64,000 nt of DNA from a virus (IMGVR_UViG_3300037313_000284:64001-128000); one strand, 5' to 3'; positions 4,890 to 51,442 are shown, counted from the stretch's first letter. The notes: generated from the letters alone by a model not told the origin. Program-made: numbers and translations.

Positions 4890-7800
4890 TTACTTAGAAC
4901 CCCGTACAACACCGTTGTAGCTGAGGCTCCAAACACGCTTACCATTGCTCGTTAGCATAAGGCCCTCGTCGGCATCGAACTTAGCCTTGGTGGGATAACC
5001 CAACTCGACGTATTCGCTTTCGGGAGCGTCCTTATAAGGCGACAGAGCAAAGTGATCACTACGAGTCTTACGAACCCACATCGGAGCACCAACTTTGACG
5101 CCTTCAATCGGAGCGCCATTATTAGTAATCAGCGTGATCGTAGCCCGCCCGCAGTTCTTAAGGAAGAACATGAACTCGTCAAAGTCTTCCACAACCGGGT
5201 TGTGCTTTTGCTCAGGCCATTCTTCAATCGTGATATCATCGTCGTCATCGTCGAGGCTGATAGGCTTCTTAGCACCACCAGTCGGACGCGCCGGACGAAC
5301 GTCAGTAATAGTAGCCGCAGGTTTCGTTGGCTTACTAATAGCTGGTAGTTCGATATGACCGCCGTTAATAGTGTCAAACGACGCCAGGAACTCTTCCGGG
5401 TCTTCCAGAATGTCCCCATCGGCAATGATTTTCTTCGCTTCTTTCTTGGCTTCAGAAATATTGCGATAGAACTTCACGCCCATGTCATCGAACTTCTGCA
5501 CCTTCTCGGTGTTCGGAATTCCCTGCATCAGTTTGCCGAGAATGCTTAGCACGTTGAACGGATGCTTACTAATCGAAGCGCACAGGTAGAATTCACCCTT
5601 CTGCACGATTGGGTAGAGGCGGAACGTTTGCGGGTCTCGCGAGGAGGCCCGTGTCGGAACGCGCTTCTGTTCCACTTTCATGAAGTTAGTGATTTCCGAG
5701 AAATCGTACGGCTCGACCTGACGCAGTTTACCACGCGAAGACAGGCCTTGCGCCACACCTTCAATCTCAGCCATGAGATTGCGAGGAATGACGTAGTTTG
5801 CCTTACTAACACGCGCTAAGAACACATCAAGAGCCTTGCGGTTCTTGAACCCAACTCGCGCCATATCAGGGAAAGGCTTGAACCCGTAGCGAGTATAAAG
5901 AGTATCCATCGCGTTGCCTTCAGCGGTATCGTAACCAACGATGGCAAGTTGACCGTTAATAGCGAGAGCTTGAAGAGCCACGGTTGCTTCCGTTTCCTCT
6001 TCTTCGTCCTCTTCCTCTTCGTCCTCGTCTTCGAATTCCTCTTCCTCGATTAACGTATCAATCGGGTCTTCCGGTTCCTCGTCTTCTAGTTCGTCTTCAA
6101 GCCCAAGCAGATCGATATCGTCTTCATCGAAGTCGTCATCGCCAGCCTCGAAATCAGTAAACTCAGGCTCAGGCGTGTTACGCCCGCGCTTGCGCTTATC
6201 TGCCTCTTGGCGTTGCTCGTTAGTAATCGGCTTGTGCTTCGGCATGCGAACCGGAGCGCCAGACTTACCTCTGATCGCGTTAGCTAACGTCTTAGCGCCT
6301 TCCTCATCCATCGGCACGTAAACGCACGTCTTCGGGAGACGAACACGCTTCATCTTCTCGCCCTTAGAAGGCGGAAGGCCGGGGATGCGGATAGTAAGAC
6401 GGTGACCATTACGCAGAATGCCATCAACGATACCAGGACCGAATTCGGTCATCACGTAATCGCCGATTTTGATTTCTACGTTGTCAATAACCGAAGGATC
6501 GTCGTCTTCATCTTCGGGGCCGTCACCTTCCTCGTCGCTATCTTCGTCCTCGTCACTGACGGGCACGGTTAGCGAACGAATGGGCTGCATATCAAACCCC
6601 ATGGGGTTAATAGGCTGGACACCCGGTAGCCACGGAACGTAGCACGACGCCGAACCGGGAATGGCTTCCCCTTCAATCGTCGGCACAACCACAGCCGCAA
6701 CGAAGTCTTTAACGCTTAGCGGACGACCAGCGTCATCTAGTAACGTTTGACCGGTAAGCGACTCAACTTCACGACCAATCTTTTTCGTTTCCTCAAGAGA
6801 CGATTGCTGGAACCAGTTATTATACTTCTTTTGTTGTTCGAAGTATTGGTTCAGCAGTTCCTCGGGGAACGATTGAATGATCTTCATCGACATGCGAACG
6901 GGCGGCAGGATTTTAACGTCGCCCTTAAAGAACGTATTGCGGAAGCTCGGCACGTAACCGAATTCCACCATCGCGTTATTAAACTTCTTCGCTAGCAGAC
7001 GAGCGATACGCAAGTCGTCAATCGTCGGAGCGCCGGAAGGCTTAGTGGCAACGATAATGTCGTAACCAAGGCTATCACGGTTGAACTTACCGAACGGATC
7101 GGGACGGCGGATACGTGCTAACGATTGGGTTTCACCACCCGGCGTCCAGACTTGCTGCATGCGGATGATACGCGAACCCACTTGGAGGTTGTGACCTTCC
7201 GAGATACTAATCTCGTCGGCAACCATGAAGCGGATTTTGTCGTCAGTCTTGAACTGCTCGACCTTATCGAACGCGCCCGCTTGATAACGCACGGAACGCT
7301 TCTTTAGATCGGGCGGCATGTTATCCCAAACGTGCTTACCAACGAACTTGTTGGGAGCCATCAGGATTACTTTGTTGCCAGGATCAGCACGGTAGGTCGG
7401 GGCATGCTCTTTAATAACAGCAAGCTTACCCTTTTCATCCATGTGCGCGTACATAAGATCGTACGCGTACGCTGCCTTGACCGAAATCAGATCGTCAGCC
7501 TCAGGAATAGCGAGTTCCAGCGTTCCAGGCTCGGCTTCTTCACCGTCATTCTTGAACTTGAACTCTTCGTAGACGAACGTGCCGTCCACGAAATCATTAA
7601 ACTGCGTAGGATCGTTGACAAACCGGTCAATAACCGAGAAGTGCTTACGCACCACGCGTTCAATCTTATTGCTGATCGCGGGATCGTCGTCACCGCTCTC
7701 AACTTTTTCCAGATCACCCTTAACCGCCTTGTCGTCTTTGATGCGGCTAATAGCTTTTTGGAACAACAGATTGTAATAACGCGTTTGCAGTTCGGTCATC

Positions 7801-10622
7801 TGCACGCGGTGATAGATTTCCTGCATCTTGGGAAGCATATAATCCCAAGAGCGGCTATCCTTACGGTACACCAGCGAGTATTCACGCATCGCGCCGTCAA
7901 TAGCGTCCGCGTCTTCAGGCGAGCCGATTTGCTTGGCGTTCTTATCACCAAGGAACGCTTCAGCGAAGGCTTCCACGTCACCACCCAGCATAGCCGGGTT
8001 AATCTTTTGCGTTTGACCCACAAGGTCGGTCACGACGTTATTAATCGTGGTACCCGAGGACAGACGCACATATTCCGCTTTAGCGCACAGGCAGAGGAAC
8101 GCTTGCGCCAGACCGGAGTCTTGGTTCTTGATCTTGTGACTTTCGTCACCGCAAACGTAGTCCAACCCAGCGCCCGCGAGGATATCCACGAAAGGATATG
8201 CCTTCAGGGGCTTCGCACTACCGAAGTTATCATAGCTAGATACTTGCTCGTAGCTGGACTTCAGTTCCGCGTCAGTGTGCTCGTTACGCAGCGTATTGTA
8301 GTTAGTAACGATAATCGTGTTGCGCGGCAGATCACGAATGAAAGCGATGACTTCCGCCATCGTCATGTTCATACCGAACGGGTTCATAAGCACGTCACGC
8401 ACGTGCTGATAAGTGAACGGGAATGCGTTCATCTTACCGTTAGTGAACTCGTTGATTTCCGCAACAAACTGTCGCACTAGGTTATTAGGAACCACGACGA
8501 CCGGGCGCTTGATCAACCCTTTGGCTAGCAGCAGGTTAATATCAGCGATGATGCAGTTGGTTTTACCACCACCCGGAGCCGCGCCGATGATAGCAGATTG
8601 CGGCGGTTCGCCACGGTCAACAGCCTGAATGTATTCCGCTTGGTGCGGAAACACAAAAGACATACGCGACGTGTCGATGTTCGGAATAACAATCGGCTTA
8701 CTGCGGTCCAACGAGTCAACGATATTATCGCGCTCATTGGTACGACGCTTTTCGTGGAAAGCCGGGATGTTAACCGTATGCTTAGCCACGATGTAGCAGT
8801 CGGTATCGGCTTCCATGTTATTAAGCACGCCACCTTCAGGCTCGCGCTTGTCACCGGAAGACCAAACCTTCAGTGCAACAGCAGCAATGGCCGCTGCGCC
8901 CTTATTAAGGAAGCTAATAATCTCGTTTTCAGCACGCTCTTGTTCGTCCGTCGTGCCGTCTTGCAAGTCGCCGACCAGACGACGTGCCCACATTTCTTGT
9001 TCGCTATTATAAGCGGTAGCATCACGCACAGCGTACGTGAAGTAAGCCCAATCTTCGAAATCGACCTTCAGCGGGTTGACTTGCGTCGGCGGGATAGCGC
9101 AACCAGACACTAGCGCATTAACTTGCCTATTAATGCTAGCGTCTTTAACAGCCGACATACGCTTGACCATTTCGAAAAGCGTACGACCTTCAACGGACAA
9201 CGCTTTGAAACGATCTCCATTCCATCCGAAACCAGAACCATTAATAATCCCACGCAGAGCGTAAGGATACATCTTGGCAATGGTGATCGGGTCTAGCGCA
9301 CGCGCACCACGAAGGTTCAGGCTACTAACAGTGCCTTCAATCGTGGTGAAAACCATGACTTCGTTATGGTGGTCAACGTACAGCACGGAAGGCGGGAAAC
9401 GGAACTTAGGTGCGTCGCGGTCGCGACTACCTTCCGTCAACTTACTCATATCGATGGCCGAAAGACTTTCGAACCATTCGTTACTAGCGGATTGGTATTC
9501 CGCCATCTTGTTTTCTTTAGGTAGCCGAATGACGCGATTACGACCCGTAATCAAATAACCGTCTTCGTTAGTACGGACCATCGGCACGTAGCCGGTCCGC
9601 TCTTCCTTCTTTCGGTTGCGTCGCGCCATCGCCATAGGCGTAGGCTTACGAGGCTTAGCACGCTTCCACGCGGTAGCCGCACGACCCTTTAGGTCTTGCG
9701 TAAACGTCGCCGTGGCCTTGTCATCCGTAGCGCCCGAAGCCGCACGAATGATCGAGTTAATATGCGTCATGAACATGAACGGCACGAACTCTTCTTTGCT
9801 TTCGCAATAGAGAGTCCACCACGCATAATCCAGCGGAAGGTGCAGTTCAGCGACGATTTCAGCCGCCATCACTACGGCGGAATTGCGTGGCAGTGCGCCG
9901 CTATCGGCGATAGTGTATGGAAGTCCACCGACTTCCGTAATGTAGTTGTTATTACCAAACAGACGCATAGTCAGCGAAACGCCAACGCCCTTCGGCAGCG
10001 TCTTGACGGCTTGGAATTCTTCGGTCTCACGAACGAAGTCTTGCATGTAGGGTGAGAATTCGCCCTTCACTAACTTCAAGAACGTCGCTTGGTCGACAAC
10101 GGACTCTAGGTTGCCATCCTCACCGAACATCAAATTCGGCTTAGTATTACGACCCTCACGCTTGTATTCCGTGGGATGCTTGTAACCAGGAAAGAGTTTT
10201 TGCAGCAGACGCTCTTGATCCGGATCGAACGGATTAATAACCAACCGCGTGCTCATCGGCTTCGCGGAAAGGATCAATCCGTCTTGGCCTTCCTTACGAA
10301 TAGCCACGAACGGGAGACGCGCAAAGGTCGTAGCGACCTTTGCAGGCATTTCGAAACCCTGAAGTGTACCTTTACCCGATGCTAATTGCTGCATCGTGTA
10401 GAAGTTGTCGGTCTTGCTATTAATAGCCGAGGCAATAGCCCCACGTGCTAGCACGTGGTTAGCTGCAATCTCTAAACCGACAATAGCCGCCGCAGCGTTG
10501 CGGAGGTTATTATGGATTTCGACGCGATCCGACTCGGCCTTGTCCGCCGCTTTGTCTTCCCCTCGCGCGTATTCCATATAGCCTTGGTAACCGCCCGTAG
10601 AGAGTAGGGACCTTTTGTACAT
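4890..10622 (-). CDS. Large SNF2-like (SF2) helicase/ATPase, multidomain
   Basis: 1910 aa; Walker A GAAPGGGKT, motif Ia VVVVPNNL, DESH, SGT, ISEGHNLQ, QSLARIRR; acidic linkers. Confidence 0.85.
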   Translation of the reverse strand: MYKRSLLSTGGYQGYMEYARGEDKAADKAESDRVEIHNNLRNAAAAIVGLEIAANHVLARGAIASAINSKTDNFYTMQQLASGKGTLQGFEMPAKVATTFARLPFVAIRKEGQDGLILSAKPMSTRLVINPFDPDQERLLQKLFPGYKHPTEYKREGRNTKPNLMFGEDGNLESVVDQATFLKLVKGEFSPYMQDFVRETEEFQAVKTLPKGVGVSLTMRLFGNNNYITEVGGLPYTIADSGALPRNSAVVMAAEIVAELHLPLDYAWWTLYCESKEEFVPFMFMTHINSIIRAASGATDDKATATFTQDLKGRAATAWKRAKPRKPTPMAMARRNRKKEERTGYVPMVRTNEDGYLITGRNRVIRLPKENKMAEYQSASNEWFESLSAIDMSKLTEGSRDRDAPKFRFPPSVLYVDHHNEVMVFTTIEGTVSSLNLRGARALDPITIAKMYPYALRGIINGSGFGWNGDRFKALSVEGRTLFEMVKRMSAVKDASINRQVNALVSGCAIPPTQVNPLKVDFEDWAYFTYAVRDATAYNSEQEMWARRLVGDLQDGTTDEQERAENEIISFLNKGAAAIAAVALKVWSSGDKREPEGGVLNNMEADTDCYIVAKHTVNIPAFHEKRRTNERDNIVDSLDRSKPIVIPNIDTSRMSFVFPHQAEYIQAVDRGEPPQSAIIGAAPGGGKTNCIIADINLLLAKGLIKRPVVVVPNNLVRQFVAEINEFTNGKMNAFPFTYQHVRDVLMNPFGMNMTMAEVIAFIRDLPRNTIIVTNYNTLRNEHTDAELKSSYEQVSSYDNFGSAKPLKAYPFVDILAGAGLDYVCGDESHKIKNQDSGLAQAFLCLCAKAEYVRLSSGTTINNVVTDLVGQTQKINPAMLGGDVEAFAEAFLGDKNAKQIGSPEDADAIDGAMREYSLVYRKDSRSWDYMLPKMQEIYHRVQMTELQTRYYNLLFQKAISRIKDDKAVKGDLEKVESGDDDPAISNKIERVVRKHFSVIDRFVNDPTQFNDFVDGTFVYEEFKFKNDGEEAEPGTLELAIPEADDLISVKAAYAYDLMYAHMDEKGKLAVIKEHAPTYRADPGNKVILMAPNKFVGKHVWDNMPPDLKKRSVRYQAGAFDKVEQFKTDDKIRFMVADEISISEGHNLQVGSRIIRMQQVWTPGGETQSLARIRRPDPFGKFNRDSLGYDIIVATKPSGAPTIDDLRIARLLAKKFNNAMVEFGYVPSFRNTFFKGDVKILPPVRMSMKIIQSFPEELLNQYFEQQKKYNNWFQQSSLEETKKIGREVESLTGQTLLDDAGRPLSVKDFVAAVVVPTIEGEAIPGSASCYVPWLPGVQPINPMGFDMQPIRSLTVPVSDEDEDSDEEGDGPEDEDDDPSVIDNVEIKIGDYVMTEFGPGIVDGILRNGHRLTIRIPGLPPSKGEKMKRVRLPKTCVYVPMDEEGAKTLANAIRGKSGAPVRMPKHKPITNEQRQEADKRKRGRNTPEPEFTDFEAGDDDFDEDDIDLLGLEDELEDEEPEDPIDTLIEEEEFEDEDEEEEDEEEETEATVALQALAINGQLAIVGYDTAEGNAMDTLYTRYGFKPFPDMARVGFKNRKALDVFLARVSKANYVIPRNLMAEIEGVAQGLSSRGKLRQVEPYDFSEITNFMKVEQKRVPTRASSRDPQTFRLYPIVQKGEFYLCASISKHPFNVLSILGKLMQGIPNTEKVQKFDDMGVKFYRNISEAKKEAKKIIADGDILEDPEEFLASFDTINGGHIELPAISKPTKPAATITDVRPARPTGGAKKPISLDDDDDDITIEEWPEQKHNPVVEDFDEFMFFLKNCGRATITLITNNGAPIEGVKVGAPMWVRKTRSDHFALSPYKDAPESEYVELGYPTKAKFDADEGLMLTSNGKRVWSLSYNGVVRGSK

Positions 10623-35310: not shown

Positions 35311-35823
35311 TTATTTAAGTTGAGCAACTGCTAGAGCAAATGCTCGCCGATTTTTCAATACTAAACTGATGTTAGGACGGAAAACCAGAGCGTTGGTAGG
35401 TAGAAGGTCGTCATATTTTTCGTAACGATTTCGCGTAGGCGGATTAGGGTCGTACAGTTTATAGCCGTCGTAATAAACAGCGTGTGAACCTCCCACTTTG
35501 TTAAGGGACGGCACTGAAAAGATAGCAGGCCTACCCCAAAACTTATGACGGAAGAATTCAGGCGCAATCGCCCAATCTTTGTGTTGCTCTCGGAAGTCGC
35601 TGGCGTCCTCTTTATAATTTGGCGACTTGAAAAGACCCAATTCAGTCAGAATTTTGTCCTCGGAGCGGATGCCTTCACCGCTATCTGGATCGTAGGCTTC
35701 AGATTTAATAGCTGCTTCATAGACTTCTTCGTAGGGAAGAGTTAGCGCCATGGCAATGCACGCAATCATGCAATCCGTAGCTAAGCGTTGTTCAATCAGT
35801 ATCGTCATCGACGTTCTCGTCAT
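35311..35823 (-). CDS. Peptidase C39-like (papain-fold) protein
   Basis: Q...DCMIACIAM, HAVYYD, LYDP (Cys-His-Asp). Confidence 0.7.
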   Translation of the reverse strand: MTRTSMTILIEQRLATDCMIACIAMALTLPYEEVYEAAIKSEAYDPDSGEGIRSEDKILTELGLFKSPNYKEDASDFREQHKDWAIAPEFFRHKFWGRPAIFSVPSLNKVGGSHAVYYDGYKLYDPNPPTRNRYEKYDDLLPTNALVFRPNISLVLKNRRAFALAVAQLK

Positions 35824-44274: not shown

Positions 44275-45018
44275 TTACGCGTAAGCGCGCCTGCGGCGCA
44301 TCAGCGCGCCCGCCGAGCCGAAGCCCATAATCATCAGCGCCCACGACGCGGGTTCAGGAACCACAGACGCCGGGGGCGGCGGCACTTCGTTCGAGGGCGT
44401 GTAAAGCGTCAGCGTCGAAGTGTAGTCGAACGGCGTCTTATAATCGGTATCGACTTGCAGTCCGTCGAATAGCAGCGTCCCGTTAATCGCAGTAGCAATC
44501 ACACCGTACTCGCCTGCCGTAGGCGCGCGGTATGAAATTTGCGTCCAAGGCGTCGCCGCGCTGTAACCCGTTGGGGCGTTGTAGCGCGTCGTAACGCCGC
44601 CGTCCGTGATCCACAGCGAGTTATCCTGCATGAGGAATTCAAACACCGGCTTCTGTTCGTTGACCTTGTAGAAGCGCACCGACAGTTCCAAGAGGCTGCC
44701 GACTTCCGGGTTAACACCCGCCGCGTAGGCGGTAAGTACGTCACCCTCGTTCAGGGTCGCGAACGGGAAGTAGAGAATCTTCGATTCGTACGAGGGCGTT
44801 CCGCTAATAACCGCCATCTTCGTACCTTCGTATGCCGTGACCGTCGTATCCCCCGACGTGAAACTGGCGGCGACGGTTGCAGGATTGATCTGCTCGTAAG
44901 GATTCATCCAGTTAGTAAAACTACCGTCTTCGAAACCTCCGTTGACGAGAACAGCCGAATTTGCGACGCCAGCGAAAGTGATAGAGGCGAGGGCGGCTAG
45001 GATAAGCGTACGTTGCAT
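44275..45018 (-). CDS. PEPxxWA-CTERM sorting-signal protein
   Basis: Signal peptide, VNGGFE, C-terminal VPEPASWALMIMGFGSAGALMRRRR. Confidence 0.9.
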   Translation of the reverse strand: MQRTLILAALASITFAGVANSAVLVNGGFEDGSFTNWMNPYEQINPATVAASFTSGDTTVTAYEGTKMAVISGTPSYESKILYFPFATLNEGDVLTAYAAGVNPEVGSLLELSVRFYKVNEQKPVFEFLMQDNSLWITDGGVTTRYNAPTGYSAATPWTQISYRAPTAGEYGVIATAINGTLLFDGLQVDTDYKTPFDYTSTLTLYTPSNEVPPPPASVVPEPASWALMIMGFGSAGALMRRRRAYA

Positions 45019-45069: not shown

Positions 45070-45144
45070 ACTATAGCACGACTATATCGTAGGTTGCAAG
45101 CGTAAAAACGCCCCGGTTTCCTAAAAAGGAAACCGGGGCGTTTT
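45070..45144 (-). promoter_or_regulatory. Terminator plus sigma70-type promoter cassette
   Basis: AAAACGCCCCGGTTTCC..GGAAACCGGGGCGTTTT, then TTGCAA-N18-TATAGT. Confidence 0.7.
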
Positions 45145-45173: not shown

Positions 45174-45623
45174 CTAGCCGCCGCGCCCTTGCGCAACGGT
45201 CGTAATCGTCATGTCAGCCGTCAGCTTGCGCGATTCCCCAACCACGCTGTTGTTAGCGTCCCGAAGCATGAGACTTCCGGTAATGCCCGCTGCCTTCATG
45301 GCCTGCTTAACCGTCGAACCGGAAGCCACTTCCGCAGTACCCGACTTCACACCAGCGAACTTGACCGTGATGTTATTAGAAGCAACCGGAGCCGGATCGA
45401 TAGTCGGAGTCGGCTGATCCGTGGTCGTGGCAGGGTCAGGTTGCGCCGTTTCGGTAGCAGCCTCGCTACTAACAGGTTCCGCTTCCGGCGCAGCAGTCGT
45501 TTCAGCGCTATCGTTGGTGGAAGCTTCCGACTGAGCTTCGTTAGTCGGCAGACCCGCGTCAGCGCTTGCGTCACCCGACACAGTGTTCTCGGTAGCTTCG
45601 GAATTAGTAGAATCGTTGTTCAT
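45174..45623 (-). CDS. Ubiquitin-like (beta-grasp) protein with disordered N-terminal extension, ending in GG
   Basis: C-terminal ~66 aa ITVKFAG..EVASGSTVKQAMKAAG..RKLTADMTITTVAQGRGG-stop; SD AAGGA. Confidence 0.8.
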   Translation of the reverse strand: MNNDSTNSEATENTVSGDASADAGLPTNEAQSEASTNDSAETTAAPEAEPVSSEAATETAQPDPATTTDQPTPTIDPAPVASNNITVKFAGVKSGTAEVASGSTVKQAMKAAGITGSLMLRDANNSVVGESRKLTADMTITTVAQGRGG

Positions 45624-45680
45624 AGTCTGTCCTTTTCTAATAACCCACAGAGACGAACAGCCCGCCCCCGCTTACCAACG

Positions 45681-46367
45681 CTACCCGAACTTGCGGGAAA
45701 GCATCTTCCATTGCGGCTGAACTTGGGTAATAACCTCATTAGCCGTCAGATTGTTGTTCAAGGCTTGCATGCACAACCACAGCGTCATTTGACTGCCGAT
45801 CTGTGCCGTCGCTCCAATTGAGAGGACGTTACCGCAGGTTCCCCGTTCCTCAGAAACCTCCGAGTCATCATACAGCGTTTCACGGTAGGAAGCAACTTGC
45901 TCCAAATCGCGAGGCGAAAACGCGTAGCTCATCGTTTGATAAGCATCGATACGGGTATCGAACGCCCATTGCACTTTCGGATTAATGAACAACCCGGCGT
46001 TAGTAATGAGCTTACGCACCGCCATGGTATCCACGCACATAAACACCACGTCGTATTTCAACTTCTCTCGTTCGTAACGCGACACAATCGAGTTAATGGT
46101 TGTGCCTGTAGCGTCGTGGATGCGGTAGGTAAGCGCTACTACCTTGGACGAACCAATGTCCTCCGGTCCGTAAACGTATTGGTTAGGCAGATTGTGCGCT
46201 TCCACCACGTCATCATCCATGACGGTGATATTAGTAAGTCCAAGTTTGGCAAGGCCGAGCGCAATGCTCGACCCCACCGCACCTGCGCCAATGACAAGGA
46301 AGCTTAGATGCTCGAAGGTCTCCGGGTTGAAGACCGATTGGTGTCTAATAATTTCCATGTGGATCAA
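45681..46367 (-). CDS. ThiF/E1-family adenylyltransferase
   Basis: VIGAGAVGS, DDDVVEAHNLPNQ, IGSSKV, CVD...R, putative catalytic Cys in GTCG. Confidence 0.92.
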   Translation of the reverse strand: MIHMEIIRHQSVFNPETFEHLSFLVIGAGAVGSSIALGLAKLGLTNITVMDDDVVEAHNLPNQYVYGPEDIGSSKVVALTYRIHDATGTTINSIVSRYEREKLKYDVVFMCVDTMAVRKLITNAGLFINPKVQWAFDTRIDAYQTMSYAFSPRDLEQVASYRETLYDDSEVSEERGTCGNVLSIGATAQIGSQMTLWLCMQALNNNLTANEVITQVQPQWKMLSRKFG

Positions 46368-47839
46368 TCCTCGTCCTCATCGTCGTCACTGTCATCGTCG
46401 CCATCGACAAGCGGGTCGTTAGTATGTGCGTTCATCGCCGTTAGGATTGTCTCTTCGACTTCGTGAAGAGAATTATTCCCGTCACTCCACTCGCCAGCAA
46501 TAGCCTGCCATGATGAAACATACGTAGTAGAAGGTGCGGTTTTTCTATCAGGCAGGAGACCAAATTTATGATCATATGATTCATCCACCATGCGGTAGTA
46601 TTCCATTACCGCAAGGATCAACGAATAGTAGTCAAACGTTCGCAAGGCAGAACCAAACACCCTACTGAAGGTGCCAACGCAATTGTTGTGCGGGTTTCGA
46701 TAACCGGGAGTTGGGCTTGCGATGTTTCTGGCACGTACCGCACCGCTGATGTTAACTTGGATTTCGAACTTACCGCAGTAACGTTCTTCTCCTGTTCGCT
46801 GTCTGGTAGCCAACATCGTTTTGGTAATAACCGTGAACCCGAACTTCGTGGGTGTGAACGATTCCAATTCAGGGATCGTGCGAAGCTGATCAATGTTCGA
46901 TTGGATGGCAGAGTTAGTATTGTCTTTCGCAGACTTCTCCAGCAATTGCAATCGGCCGATCTTAAGTTCCTCTTCGATCAAGGCCTTGTTGAGTTTTTCT
47001 AGGCGTGTTTCAGCCTTGGTTCTCTCGGCAACGATGTTTTTAGTAATAGCGCCGCGCCACCGTTCCACCAAAACTTCGTCTGTCACTGGCGTAAGAGGCT
47101 GAGCATTCAGCCAATCGACGTGTCCCATAAAGGTCGTAAAGACGAAGTTTCCGACCGTGACGTAACCGTGTCGAGAAATAGTAAACTCGTTAGTTTGTAT
47201 TTTGGGAATCTTGAACGGCTTCGTAGGTGTCGAGTCCGCCGGTGTCAGTTCCGTGAACGCCCCGTTTAACTTGGGGGCCTTCTCGACGTTGAAATGAATC
47301 CCCTCAATCAACACACCGTGCACGTAGACAATCGTCCTGGCGGTTCCTCGGCCAATAACCTCATTTGAATTAGCAGAGAACCATGCTTTGGCGCTACCCT
47401 CGTCGGCAAGAGCGTCAATGGTGATCAGGTTATTCTGCATGCATCCGAAGATTTTTCGCTGGACCTTACCACTATCGCTAGACGCCGGTCTTGTATAATG
47501 ACGATCCTGCGAACAAGCTTGTTGCAGCGTATGATAATCGTACTCACGCCGATCTGTCATTAGCGACAATTTCCTGACAGACTTATATCTCTCGTTTCGC
47601 TTACTAATTGCTTCATTAGCTGCCGCAACGAACGGGTCATCCGACACGCGAACGCTAGCATGTCGCCTATCCAAAACGGTCGTAGCGAATTGGAGATTAC
47701 CTTCCAACTCACTAATAATTCGGTCCAGGCTTCCGGCGGTACCACCTTTCACGGGCTTACCCTCGACTCCCCGGATTTTCATCATCAGGAGGAAGTTATC
47801 ACGGTTGGACGGAAGCACGTCGCTAAGACGGATTTTCAT
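46364..47839 (-). CDS. Coiled-coil protein with C-terminal prokaryotic E2-like domain
   Basis: GKFEIQV..VRARN..NPHNNCVG..helical YYSLILAVMEYY; ATGA overlap with the E1 gene. Confidence 0.55.
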   Translation of the reverse strand: MKIRLSDVLPSNRDNFLLMMKIRGVEGKPVKGGTAGSLDRIISELEGNLQFATTVLDRRHASVRVSDDPFVAAANEAISKRNERYKSVRKLSLMTDRREYDYHTLQQACSQDRHYTRPASSDSGKVQRKIFGCMQNNLITIDALADEGSAKAWFSANSNEVIGRGTARTIVYVHGVLIEGIHFNVEKAPKLNGAFTELTPADSTPTKPFKIPKIQTNEFTISRHGYVTVGNFVFTTFMGHVDWLNAQPLTPVTDEVLVERWRGAITKNIVAERTKAETRLEKLNKALIEEELKIGRLQLLEKSAKDNTNSAIQSNIDQLRTIPELESFTPTKFGFTVITKTMLATRQRTGEERYCGKFEIQVNISGAVRARNIASPTPGYRNPHNNCVGTFSRVFGSALRTFDYYSLILAVMEYYRMVDESYDHKFGLLPDRKTAPSTTYVSSWQAIAGEWSDGNNSLHEVEETILTAMNAHTNDPLVDGDDDSDDDEDED

Positions 47840-47869
47840 CTTATTAACTCTCCATTGTATTGTGGCTGA

Positions 47870-47943
47870 AGCATAGCACGATGTATGAATCGCTGCAAAT
47901 CAGCCAAAAAGAAACCCGCCACATCGAAACGTAGCGGGTTCTT
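47870..47943 (-). promoter_or_regulatory. Terminator plus sigma70-type promoter of the E2-E1-Ubl operon
   Basis: AACCCGC..GCGGGTT hairpin plus T tract, then TTGCAG-N17-TATGCT. Confidence 0.7.
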
Positions 47944-49925: not shown

Positions 49926-50372
49926 TTAAACGTGATACACAACGCCCAACGGTTTCAATTGCTCGAAACGCGTGTAGCGGAACTTATACCACTGTGACGG
50001 GTCGTACACCTTCCCATCACGTACTAACACGCAATGAAGCGTGTCCGCCTCGAACCAACTACGGCTAGGAACCAAGTGAATGCCGTTGCGGTTGCGCACG
50101 CGGTTACGAACACGAATGCGAGCGTCGATATCGTCGGGATTATACTTCTCCGGCCAATGCCAACGCACTTGCTGATCGAGTGCCTTCATAGTCGCTACTA
50201 TCTGTGGGAAACGAAGCCCGCAGATAATATCGTCCGGCTCTTCGAACGGCACGAAATCCTCAACGTGTTCGTAGTCGAGTCCCGTAGCCATCGCTATGCA
50301 ACAAATCGCGCAATCGGCTGCACGACGTTGATAGACCATTTTAATATCAGGTTGTAGCCACGTCCACATCAT
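49926..50372 (-). CDS. Peptidase C39-like (papain-fold) protein
   Basis: YQRRAADCAICCIAM, HCVLV, VYDP; start refined. Confidence 0.7.
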   Translation of the reverse strand: MMWTWLQPDIKMVYQRRAADCAICCIAMATGLDYEHVEDFVPFEEPDDIICGLRFPQIVATMKALDQQVRWHWPEKYNPDDIDARIRVRNRVRNRNGIHLVPSRSWFEADTLHCVLVRDGKVYDPSQWYKFRYTRFEQLKPLGVVYHV

Positions 50373-50634
50373 TAAATCCCGGCGTTTGTTCGATTCAAAT
50401 TTCTTGCCAGTTTGTCTTGCACTTAGGGCAAGAAATTTCGTCGCGCCAATGGGTCTCACTCGCTGTGTGATACTTGCGATGAGCAATAATGCAAATCGCC
50501 CCGCTAATTAGCTTGCTAACAGCAAGAATAACTTTTCGCATGTCCCGAATCTCCTATGGTATGTGGTCAGAGGGGATTGCGCCCTCTACGAACTCGATGC
50601 GATCATCGTCTCCGTCGTGCAGCGCCATGCTTAG

Positions 50635-50716: not shown

Positions 50717-51442
50717 TTATGCGATTCGTGTGCGACGTTTACGTAAGGCCGCTCCAACGAAACCCATTCCTACGATTAGTAAGGCCCAAGTCTGAGGTTC
50801 AGGCACAGGCGTAGTAGGCGGGCCAGTAGGTGGTTCCGTCGGCGGGTTTCCTCCTGGTGGTTCCGGGTTATTAGGAGGATTCACCGGAGGATTTGGCGGG
50901 TTAGGTCTGATAACCGGCGGCTCCGGCATGACAGGTGGATTAGGATTAATTACCGGAGGTTCCGGATTAGTAGGCGGACCGACCGGTGGCGAAACCGGTG
51001 GCTTACCACCAACACCCACGCCGCCATCGCTACCACCTATTCCACCGCCAACCGGGAAATTATTATCATCGGGAAGGAACGTCAATCCTTGCTTAACGGG
51101 AACCGGAGGCGGCACGGCTGGGATATCACCCAGCACCGGAGGAAGACCGTCAAAGATAATAGCGGTCATGTAAACCGGGGCCGGGTTTAAATGGCATGCG
51201 AAGCGCCATTGAGCGGTTTCTATTTCCCTAATCGGGTCGATGCGAATACGCACCGCACGATAGCCGTAACGAGACTTAGCGGGCGCTCTAGCCGCCGCAG
51301 GTTTAGCGCGAGCGGGACGAGCCTTACGCGGCGGTTCCTTGACCCAGCATTCGGTTTCCCGAATCGGTTGCGCTTGAGCGCTGCCAGCGGCCAGCAATCC
51401 CGTTACTAATCCCATAAAGACAATGTTGCGCAACTGGCGCAT
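50717..51442 (-). CDS. Pro-rich PEPxxWA-CTERM protein
   Basis: Signal peptide, Pro-rich stalk, VPEPQTWALLIVGMGFVGAALRKRR. Confidence 0.88.
   Translation of the reverse strand: MRQLRNIVFMGLVTGLLAAGSAQAQPIRETECWVKEPPRKARPARAKPAAARAPAKSRYGYRAVRIRIDPIREIETAQWRFACHLNPAPVYMTAIIFDGLPPVLGDIPAVPPPVPVKQGLTFLPDDNNFPVGGGIGGSDGGVGVGGKPPVSPPVGPPTNPEPPVINPNPPVMPEPPVIRPNPPNPPVNPPNNPEPPGGNPPTEPPTGPPTTPVPEPQTWALLIVGMGFVGAALRKRRTRIA

Follow-up and report, generated by a model that had tools for sequence, protein, structure and literature searches.

Gene organisation of the locus

Within the window, i.e. the whole stretch of 64,000 nt of jumbo-phage DNA that was analysed, three co-oriented genes on the minus strand (45174-47839) encode an E2-like protein, an E1 of the ThiF superfamily and a ubiquitin-like protein (Ubl) (Table 1). 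A preliminary description of this DNA had placed three co-oriented genes here, and all three minus-strand ORFs were recovered at those positions. The E1 ATG is situated 5 nt past the E2-like stop codon and its ribosome-binding site lies within the E2-like coding sequence, so that the two genes are translationally coupled. Since orthologue comparison points to the ATG at 46358, this codon is taken as the putative true start of E1, with the TTG at 46367 as alternative.

The terminator proposed earlier at the end of the operon was borne out by RNA folding, which gave a long hairpin with a perfect stem and a U-run after it. Upstream of the operon, the consensus scan identified a terminator-like hairpin with a 13-pair stem, including 6 GC pairs, which is followed by CTTTTTGG. 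The operon had also been credited with its own sigma70-type promoter, and this is its weakest element: the hexamers are present at the expected place, but they match only 8 of 12 consensus positions, which is under the threshold of the consensus scan. The TCGTGCTAT block of this candidate promoter recurs exactly at 45073-45081, in a promoter-like site before the next gene; the 9-mer shows no enrichment, with 16 occurrences in the window versus 14.9 expected.

Table 1. Coordinates of the genes and other features of the E2-like/E1/Ubl locus (positions in the window)
Feature	Position	Strand	Remarks
Terminator-like hairpin and T-run ending the upstream transcription unit	47912-47941		Minus strand; consensus scan and reading of the sequence
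Candidate sigma70-type promoter	47870-47898		Minus strand; TTGCAG-N17-TATGCT, TCGTGC extended -10 region; weak evidence, inferred
E2-like ORF (gene 1)	46364-47839	-	491 aa
E2-like N-terminal domain, residues 1-250	47090-47839	-	Fold unassigned; YVHGV-IEGIHFN motif, residues 172-184
E2-like long single helix, residues 254-320	46880-47080	-	DSSP on AF2 model; predicted coiled-coil stalk
E2-like UBC-fold domain (modelled), residues ~321-445	46505-46879	-	N-P-H 382-384, invariant Cys387
E2-like Cys387 codon	46679-46681	-	
E2-like polyacidic C-terminal tail	46367-46414	-	…DGDDDSDDDEDED
GAGGA ribosome-binding site of the E1 gene	Inside codons of the E2-like acidic tail, 46367-46414	-	
E1 ORF (gene 2)	45681-46367 or 45681-46358	-	From TTG (228 aa) or from ATG (225 aa)
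E1 key residues	45681-46358	-	Arg5, G24-x-G-x-x-G29, D48-D50, H55-N-L-P-N-Q60, K72, D110, Cys175
E1 Cys175 codon	45834-45836	-	
Ubl ORF (gene 3)	45174-45623	-	149 aa, RGG-stop end
Ubl disordered N-terminal extension, residues 1-83	45375-45623	-	Acidic, Thr/Ser/Pro/Ala-rich, no Lys/Arg
Ubl beta-grasp domain (modelled), residues 84-149	45174-45374	-	Ends …TITTVAQGRGG, then stop
Intrinsic terminator at operon end	45104-45144		Minus strand; dG -34.5 kcal/mol, z -7.65, then UUUUU

The E1 protein

Judged from its sequence, the product of gene 2 is a minimal E1 of the ThiF superfamily, consisting of a single adenylation domain of 225 aa. It scores 81.2 bits with the Pfam ThiF model (PF00899), whose gathering cutoff is 28.1 (E 8.5e-23), over profile positions 18-199 of 238. 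The motifs GAGAVGS, DDD, HNLPNQ and GTCG are present, and cysteines occur only at positions 108, 175 and 196 without any CxxC pair, in agreement with the earlier description of a ThiF/E1 with GxGxxG, D-x-D, NL..Q and GTCG that lacks such pairs. Residues of the catalytic type were observed to be conserved: the ATP/Mg-binding set (G24-x-G26-x-x-G29, D48-D50, K72, D110 and R5) is invariant in an alignment of five sequences, and across 14 viral loci the ATP/Mg-binding residues and the N-terminal Arg finger are retained, while the crossover-loop cysteine (Cys175) is kept in 13 of them. An asparagine replaces the arginine of the NL-x-RQ motif of ThiF/MoeB, and the adenylation chemistry could therefore be atypical. 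The nearest solved relatives are ThiF, Uba1 and MoeB, and none of the NCBIfam equivalog cutoffs was reached, the scores being 67.8 bits for ThiF (TIGR02356, cutoff 275), 37-49 bits for the MoeB models (cutoffs 266-449), 43.6 bits for UbaA (cutoff 450) and 50.5 bits for PRTRC_ThiF (cutoff 144.75).

The ubiquitin-like protein

Gene 3 had been described as encoding a 149-aa Ubl with an acidic extension of about 83 residues, a domain of beta-grasp size and an RGG-stop end, and this description stood up well. The first Lys or Arg of the protein does not occur before residue 88, and an acidic disordered extension of the same character, but of divergent sequence, is found in all orthologues from loci without a JAB peptidase. 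Residues 80-149 of the ESM Atlas model superpose on MoaD/ThiS/SAMP2, the Ubl domain of EccD and TGS with TM scores of 0.74-0.83 (by query), and by this model, whose quality is moderate (whole-protein pLDDT 0.65), the C-terminal domain is a beta-grasp. A Pfam search with the window Ubl gave no match; related viral Ubls do match Pfam ThiS (31.7 bits, cutoff 22.5), SAMP2 and Ub-Mut7C. The C-terminal glycine is kept in the orthologues, and Gly-Gly-stop is invariant within the clade: …RGG-stop closes the Ubl of the window and those of loci L003, L004, L005 and L008, …SGG-stop that of Xanthomonas phage PhiXhv-12, where Ala precedes it, and that of L021, and …RMG-stop that of L020. A word-indexed homology search with the Ubl retrieved only the Ubl itself, and the low-complexity extension is probably behind this lack of homologue matches.

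The E2-like protein

The 491-aa product of gene 1 is not recognised by sequence as a member of any known E2 family. No match was obtained in Pfam and PADLOC (E <= 0.1), NCBIfam (E <= 0.01) or PHROGs, nor by tblastn against 50,697 phage records, despite the presence of a remote homologue among those records. The 54 E2-like family members likewise gave no Pfam match at E <= 0.01 and no PHROGs match at E <= 0.001, and the family profile found just coiled-coil and acidic-tail noise among PDB sequences. Foldseek searches of the full and domain models against PDB yielded nothing at E <= 1e-3, and a search of BFVD with the model of the protein only returned uncharacterised phage proteins; in the structure search with the full-length model, coiled-coil matches predominate.

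The C-terminal domain is nevertheless modelled with a pLDDT of 92.3, and in this model it has the UBC fold, since it shows the N-terminal helix, antiparallel beta-meander and C-terminal helices of the UBC superfold and superposes on solved E2s over most of its length. A point against a catalytic E2 is that non-catalytic RWD and UEV domains score equal to E2s. The domain has the sequence feature of catalytic E2s, i.e. a conserved cysteine in the loop between the last strand and helix 2, after an HPN-like motif. The cysteine of the PHNNC motif (residues 383-387), Cys387, was observed to be invariant in all 55 family members, down to about 17% identity, and is preceded by a histidine in 51 and accompanied by an adjacent glycine in 51. 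The preceding motif reads [H/N]-P-H in the family (H in 35 and N in 13 at the first position, P in 47 and H in 51 of 55), with a His-to-Cys spacing of 2-15 residues, and helix 2 begins 4 residues past Cys387. Counted from where the alignment starts, the distance to the invariant cysteine is 81-85 residues, versus 85-89 for the catalytic cysteine of Ubc13/E2S, although these values are approximate as they derive from alignment ranges only. The preliminary description had regarded the domain as E2-like with the PHNNC cysteine, which it named as its weakest point, a proposal that would have been refuted by another fold or a non-conserved cysteine; both findings support it.

The end of the long helix that precedes this domain forms helix 1 of the UBC domain. 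The N-terminal domain is modelled by AF2 at a pLDDT of mostly 80-95, and no fold match was found for it (TM <= 0.32 in the Atlas search, on a poor Atlas model with pLDDT 0.47). Its YVHGV-IEGIHFN motif is kept in the jumbo-phage clade, and IEGIHFNV is identical in the Xanthomonas phage protein. At least 8 Asp or Glu residues occur among the last 20 residues in 33 of the 55 family members.

Conservation of the cluster and association with JAB

About seven distinct lineages of phages carry the triad, cultured jumbo phages of Xanthomonas and Erwinia among them, and the system is not unique to the window phage; a search for the three-gene neighbourhood in other phages had been suggested as a check. 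The three genes were observed to adjoin in L003, L004, L005/L006, L007/L008, L020, L021 and Xanthomonas phage PhiXhv-12, and all four E2-anchored contigs carry an adjoining E1. The related-locus search that started from the five-sequence alignment gave one locus; the 54-sequence alignment contained no stretch of sufficient conservation for such a search. In 185,579 species genomes no cellular homologue of the close clade turned up, which is a weak negative as only two narrow peptide patterns were used. C39-like peptidases were considered as deconjugases; this is unsupported, one candidate giving E 0.048 and the other no match.

A second arrangement was observed in smaller, uncultured phages of about 48-55 kb (loci L010-L014 and L022), which have the four-gene order Ubl-E2-JAB-E1 with an intact JAMM peptidase. 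The presence of the peptidase is linked to the form of the Ubl: residues past the glycine are found in five of the six loci with an intact JAMM peptidase, and the Ubl ends at the glycine in all seven JAB-less loci. Neither the Pfam model nor a viral-JAB profile, for which the positive control worked, detected a JAB in the window record or in two complete related jumbo-phage genomes, in line with the earlier claim that none is seen or needed. We found no publication that describes the JAB-less phage triad, nor any on the four-gene phage Ubl-E2-JAB-E1 cassettes.

A proposed phage-owned conjugation cascade

We consider it likely, in the absence of biochemistry for any member, that the three genes constitute a self-contained, phage-owned cascade for ubiquitin-like protein conjugation. 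Every chemical step in this proposal, thioester formation included, as well as the independence of an E3 and the biological role, is inferred from the protein families to which the parts belong. In this scheme the minimal E1, which is probably homodimeric as are ThiF/MoeB/UBA5, would bind ATP and adenylate Gly149 of the Ubl. The Ubl appears to be translated already mature, and hence no processing peptidase would be needed. The activated Ubl would then move, probably via a thioester with Cys175 of E1, to Cys387 of the UBC domain, and the 491-aa protein would pass it on to lysines of its targets with no need for a separate E3. Substrates may be selected by the N-terminal domain, the coiled-coil stalk and the polyacidic tail of the E2-like protein. 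Each modification would add a beta-grasp domain together with a Lys-free, polyanionic disordered tail of about 83 residues.

As to the role, in which we have far less confidence than in the chemistry, we would guess that the cascade modifies proteins of the host, or those of the phage itself, in a way that benefits the phage during infection. The preliminary description had suggested early expression, and tagging of host defence proteins or a decoy for Ubl-based host defences as roles; these suggestions are so far unsupported. A more specific possibility, which we regard as unlikely, is that the cascade serves as a weapon for covalent 'polyanion tagging' of basic nucleic-acid-binding host proteins, preventing them from binding nucleic acids. 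The polyacidic tail and N-terminal domain of the E2-like protein would then recruit proteins of this kind, for instance nucleoid proteins, restriction or other DNA-sensing defence proteins or RNA polymerase factors, to which a Ubl with a DNA-like acidic tail would be attached; the block would be irreversible because there is no deconjugase. Polyacidic tails are known from the E2 enzymes Rad6 and Cdc34.

Two other readings concern the chemistry itself. Conjugation by an E1 alone, independent of an E2, is known from archaeal SAMP/UbaA, Thermus TtuB/TtuC and Urm1/Uba4, and the 491-aa protein could in that case be a non-catalytic UBC-fold adaptor of the RWD or UEV type. This is very unlikely, as there would be no reason for an adaptor to keep a cysteine in 55, a histidine in 51 and a glycine in 51 of 55 members at the place of the E2 HPN…Cys motif; RWD and UEV domains are characteristically without a catalytic cysteine. 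That E1 and Ubl form a thiocarboxylate sulfur-carrier pair of the ThiS/MoaD type, boosting host cofactor or thionucleoside synthesis, seems highly unlikely, even though ThiF and MoeB are the best sequence matches of E1, MoaD, ThiS and SAMP2 are the closest structural neighbours of the Ubl, and the Xanthomonas phage genes carry the GenBank label 'thiamine biosynthesis protein' (PV764601). The E1 reaches only 68 bits against the ThiF equivalog cutoff of 275 and remains far under the cutoffs of MoeB and the others, and neither a rhodanese domain nor ThiG or MoaE was detected in three phage records, of which two are complete; this extends to the level of whole genomes an earlier remark that thiamine and molybdopterin genes are not found nearby. 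The 83-residue acidic extension, the UBC partner with its invariant cysteine and the JAB in relatives rather fit conjugation.

With the chemistry of the proposed cascade unchanged, its role could also lie in competition between viruses, as a phage-carried, Bil-like defence that tags structural proteins of co-infecting or superinfecting rival phages so that their assembly fails. In favour of this, BilABCD systems (Ubl-E2-DUB-E1) are anti-phage, and no other bacterial relatives that have these parts in this order have been characterised; the Bil gene order is seen in the smaller phages; Bil has been found to tag the central tail fibre of phages (10.1101/2023.09.04.556158; 10.1101/2023.09.26.559546). 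However, some carriers are strictly virulent jumbo phages, which have little to gain from long-term protection of the host; PhiXhv-12 is predicted to be 100% virulent (PMC13340338). Also, the active-site motif of the E2 family is unlike that of BilB, and the narrow-pattern search of species genomes gave no cellular copy of the close clade. We regard this role as distinctly unlikely.

Possible significance

To our knowledge, bacterial ubiquitin-like conjugation (Bil, CBASS Cap2 and Bub) has been characterised only as anti-phage host immunity. A complete cascade in virulent jumbo phages would show that bacterial viruses, like eukaryotic ones, use protein tagging, in this case with an E1 that is the smallest of its kind and a modifier with a built-in polyanionic tail. 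The analysis also brings forward an unnamed E2 family, whose active-site motif resembles the classical HPN…Cys more closely than the motif of bacterial Bil E2s does, and corrects the database annotation of the Xanthomonas phage genes as thiamine biosynthesis genes. Since cultured Xanthomonas and Erwinia jumbo phages carry the triad, its targets and role are open to direct testing. If polyanion tagging were true, anti-defence or host takeover would here rest on an enzymatic mechanism of a new class, and no earlier viral ubiquitin-like system would be known that is aimed at a bacterial host.

Comparison with known systems

The closest counterpart among bacterial systems is BilABCD (types I/II; operon classes 6d/6c of Iyer et al. 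2006), an ISG15-like anti-phage ubiquitination system. Like the triad, it has no E3 and combines a Gly-terminated Ubl and a ThiF-type E1 with an E2 of UBC fold that bears a catalytic cysteine. Some type II BilA Ubls have disordered N-terminal domains as well (10.1101/2023.09.26.559546). In contrast to Bil, the window system is virus-encoded and without JAB. BilD-type E1s contain an inactive and an active adenylation domain, an inserted CYS domain and a Zn-binding CxxC, whereas the single-domain window E1 has no inactive adenylation domain, inserted CYS domain or Zn-binding CxxC. BilB-type E2s have a conserved histidine C-terminal to the cysteine and lack the classical histidine before it (Iyer 2006; Chambers 2023, His151). 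The phage E2-like family shows the reverse, since a histidine precedes the cysteine in 51 of 55 members and no column after it has histidine in more than 10. The E2-like domain of the window is furthermore fused to a 250-aa N-terminal domain, a coiled coil and an acidic tail, and models of Bil parts in Pfam, PADLOC and NCBIfam gave no match to this protein.

Other systems are more distant. In type II CBASS, also a host defence system, Cap2 combines E2 and E1 in one protein and conjugates the C-terminus of the CD-NTase, there is no dedicated Ubl, and Cap3 is a JAB; the PADLOC matches of the window E1 span just its Rossmann part. The minimal cascades of UFM1 (UBA5/UFC1) and Atg12 (Atg7/Atg10) are eukaryotic, rely on E3s or partners, and have no relation to the window system at the sequence level beyond the superfamily. 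The tail-assembly Ubl and JAB of phage lambda (TAPI/TAPK) include a phage beta-grasp with a conserved C-terminal glycine (Iyer et al. 2006, PMC1779556), but they have no E1 or E2 and form a processing/assembly module within tail gene clusters rather than a conjugation cascade. Nidhogg viruses of Asgard archaea carry ThiF/E1-like genes; only E1 homologues were reported, predicted to hijack the E2 and Ubl of the host (10.1101/2021.07.29.454249), and these viruses thus differ from the window phage in not having a complete virus-owned set.

The four-gene cassettes of the smaller phages are identical to Bil in gene order and, as in Bil, their Ubl precursors would be cut back to the glycine. They share with the window triad the E2-like family (HMM E 1e-9 to 8e-15), the minimal E1 family with its conserved cysteine, and beta-grasp Ubls, but differ from it in having short Ubls, most of them with residues past the glycine, and E2-like proteins of only 270-380 aa that lack the N-terminal domain of the jumbo clade. 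The JAB-less jumbo-phage triad is a distinct branch of this wider viral Ubl-E2-JAB-E1 family.

Gene organization

The window covers bases 64001-128000 of an IMG/VR virus record of 140.9 kb. As the completeness of this record is estimated at 68%, the source virus is probably a jumbo phage with a genome of some 200 kb. All three open reading frames claimed in the preliminary description, for an E2-like protein, an E1 and a ubiquitin-like protein (Ubl), were found as described, and every gene surrounding this triad lies on the minus strand. The terminator proposed for the operon is borne out by a hairpin (dG -34.5 kcal/mol, z -7.65) and the UUUUU after it, and a hairpin of 13 pairs with a T-run closes the upstream transcription unit. 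The proposed promoter sequence, TTGCAG-N17-TATGCT, is present, but it is weak (8 out of 12 consensus positions), and the scan did not call it. The most likely start codon of the E1 is the ATG at 46358, since orthologous E1s begin with MD(I/V)IRHQ; this codon lies 5 nt after the TGA stop of the E2-like gene (46364-46366), with GAGGA 9 nt 5' of it, and translation of E1 is most likely coupled to that gene.

Two other phage proteins contain a PEP-CTERM sorting motif (E 3.5e-7 and 6.5e-7, above the Pfam cutoff), which implies that the host has an exosortase. The gene for one of them comes directly after the Ubl operon and is preceded by a promoter-like site that has the TCGTGCTAT block in common with the triad's proposed promoter. 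Two "C39-like peptidases" were rejected as putative deconjugases, as profiles hardly support them: Peptidase_C39 matches the first at E 0.048 only, and the second has no match.

Coordinates of the triad and of related features
Feature	Sequence	Coordinates	Strand	Remarks
E2-like ORF	window	46364-47839	minus	491 aa
E1 ORF	window	45681-46367	minus	228 aa from TTG; 225 aa from the more likely start, ATG 46358
Ubl ORF	window	45174-45623	minus	149 aa, RGG-stop end
Promoter-like sequence	window	47870-47898		
Triad terminator	window	45104-45144		
Upstream hairpin	window	47912-47941		
PEP-CTERM proteins	window	44275-45018; 50717-51442	minus	
"C39-like peptidases"	window	35311-35823; 49926-50486		
Tandem E2-like paralogues	L007	2679-4448; 4479-6281		589 and 600 aa
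Same paralogues	L008	2062-3831; 3862-5664		
DUF6011 (PF19474) gene	L003	4411-5049		
DUF6011 (PF19474) gene	L004	4480-5088		
DUF6011 (PF19474) gene	JGI contig			
E2-like protein	L002 (PV764601.1)	5236-7914		892 aa, Xanthomonas phage
E1 of four-gene cassette	L010	5863-6999		378 aa
Second ThiS-like ORF	L014	6777-6986		69 aa

The E1 and Ubl proteins

The E1 matches Pfam ThiF (E 8.5e-23, 81 bits versus a cutoff of 28), and among solved proteins the nearest to it in sequence are E. coli ThiF (E 3.5e-14), Uba1, MoeB, MccB, Uba4, UBA3, UBA5, Cap2 and BubCD. For all named orthologue groups its score stays far under the curated cutoff (e.g. 68 bits versus 275 for ThiF), and it is therefore an E1-superfamily adenylation domain and not a ThiF or MoeB orthologue. 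Numbered on the 225-residue form, the conserved features are Arg5, G24xGxxG29, D48-D50, H55-N-L-x-N-Q60, K72 and D110, while Cys175 (in GTCG) is kept in 13 of 14 viral loci. The reported absence of CxxC pairs holds, as the protein has three cysteines in all and zero CxxC, and it has Asn at the Arg position of the NL-x-RQ motif known from ThiF/MoeB. In one four-gene cassette (L010) the E1 has extensions of about 40 N-terminal and 130 C-terminal residues, absent from the minimal E1s, that may be a docking element for E2 or Ubl.

In an ESM Atlas model of the exact window Ubl, residues 80-149 superpose at TM 0.72-0.83 on MoaD/ThiS/SAMP2 clusters, the EccD ubiquitin-like domain and a TGS domain, all of the beta-grasp fold; a feature search with the Ubl gives viral clusters, some with ThiS or SAMP2. 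All orthologues end in ...TITTV(A/S)Q(G/A)RGG-stop. The N-terminal extension (83 residues in the window, 74-135 in others) diverges in sequence, but its acidic, Thr/Ser/Pro/Ala-rich character stays; Lys and Arg are missing from it in four orthologues, and that of the Xanthomonas phage has a single such residue.

The E2-like family

The E2-like protein had no match in any profile library tried. A word-indexed search gave four homologues (39-44% identity), and an exhaustive profile search gave 52 cluster representatives (29 with E <= 1e-10) that have the coiled coil and C-terminal domain in common; none of 54 members matched a Pfam or PHROG family. Cys387 and Gly356 do not vary at all in an alignment of 55 sequences, the Xanthomonas phage protein among them; Asn372 (54), Thr339 (52), His384 (51), Gly389 (51) and Pro383 (47) are nearly invariant, whereas the second cysteine (355) is unconserved. 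The family motif is R-N-x-A-x-P...[H/N]-P-H-x(2-15)-C-[LVIM]-G-[SGT]-[FY], and 33 of the 55 members have a strongly acidic C-terminal tail.

With this alignment AlphaFold2 produced a confident full-length model (pLDDT 82.8), in which an alpha/beta N-domain is followed by a single helix of 67 residues, six short strands, the loop with NPH and Cys387, and helices. Foldseek gave no significant match to it. Cys387 lies 81-85 residues past the alignment start, and in Ubc13 and E2S the catalytic Cys lies 85-89 residues past it, which is consistent with positional equivalence, though only approximately, as it relies on alignment ranges. The Xanthomonas phage protein has Cys-rich extensions of about 60 N-terminal and 90 C-terminal residues (e.g. 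CVCCKHEPSEECGCCGTCKRTRCSCCSDCESSPCKCCNRCLC), absent from the window protein, that may bind metal.

Conserved linkage and four-gene relatives

The three-gene neighbourhood was sought in other phages, and the order E2-like, E1, Ubl is kept in L003 (an NCBI metagenome contig of 205.6 kb), L004, L005/L006 and a JGI contig. A complete IMG/VR phage of 205.9 kb with terminal repeats (L007/L008) has two tandem E2-like paralogues ahead of a single E1 and Ubl; these could represent two substrate specificities on one activating enzyme. Xanthomonas phage PhiXhv-12 encodes in a row a Ubl (140 residues, ...AKASGG-stop), an E2-like protein (892 residues) and an E1 (227 residues, 38% identical to that of the window). 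This E2-like protein is still matched (E 1.1e-26) by an HMM from which the Xanthomonas sequence was left out, and a Ubl-domain HMM matches the Ubl (E 3e-11, in a database of only 11 sequences). All four examined contigs anchored on distant E2-like members have an adjoining E1. A related E1 occurs in only 7 of 50,697 phage records, five being Xanthomonas/Erwinia jumbo phages of about 228 kb (PhiXhv-12, -15, -16, Ep026, Ep032), in which it is annotated as "thiamine biosynthesis protein"; the PhiXhv paper nowhere mentions ThiF, thiamine or ubiquitin (PMC13340338). Upstream of the triad, at a distance of one to three genes, a DUF6011 gene recurs in three related phages.

E1-anchored IMG/VR loci from phages of about 48-55 kb (L010-L014), and L022, have the order Ubl, E2-like, third gene, E1. 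The third gene has sub-threshold Prok-JAB matches in six of seven cases, and in an alignment six of these genes have an intact JAMM signature (E...H-x-H-x7-S-x-x-D). The Ubls of these loci match ThiS, SAMP2 or Ub-Mut7C and mostly run on after the Gly (...KGG-R, ...KG-A, ...HG-AAIS, ...GGG-MSTNVHIV). The Ubl ends at Gly in 7/7 JAB-less loci versus 1/6 JAB-containing ones (Fisher p 0.005, uncorrected for relatedness), the pattern that a functional Ubl system should show if JAB matures the precursor. No JAB had been seen beside the triad; likewise, Pfam Prok-JAB and a viral-JAB profile (positive control E <= 1e-89 in three records) find none in PhiXhv-12 or the 205.9-kb relative, both complete, or in the record of the window. 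L014, which already has an upstream Ubl, contains a second small ThiS-like ORF just after E1 (Pfam ThiS E 0.0014) whose C-terminus is not Gly.

Interpretation and comparison with known systems

The finding is confirmed, and folds, motifs and conserved linkage give good support to its reading as a Ubl conjugation cascade; targets and role are not established. E1 and Ubl could instead be a sulfur carrier pair, but ThiG, MoaE and rhodanese are absent from three phage records, in agreement with the preliminary description, which saw no thiamine or molybdopterin genes, and the E1 is no ThiF/MoeB orthologue. A non-catalytic adaptor role for the E2-like protein is hard to reconcile with an invariant Cys and conserved neighbouring His and Gly. 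A Bil-like defence serving inter-phage competition has its chemistry in common with the proposed cascade and cannot be excluded.

What is new in this putative conjugation triad is its ownership by a virus, its lack of a JAB, the minimal E1, the E2 family, which is itself new and has accessory domains, and the polyanionic tail of the Ubl. The full texts searched contain no description of a phage-owned E1-E2-Ubl set, although subscription journals were thinly covered and prior publication is not excluded; two jumbo-phage surveys make no mention of E1 or Ubl genes. For Asgard viruses only E1 homologues are reported, and the phage tail-assembly TAPI/TAPK, reported earlier as phage Ubl elements, are without E1 or E2. 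The bacterial anti-phage system BilABCD resembles the four-gene phage form in its gene order Ubl-E2-DUB-E1 and in Ubl trimming (10.1101/2023.09.26.559546). BilD differs: this E1 has two domains, an inserted CYS domain and a Zn site. In Bil-type E2s the classical His ahead of the Cys is missing, and a His follows the Cys instead (PMC1779556); in the viral E2-like family this is reversed, with a His before the Cys and none conserved after.
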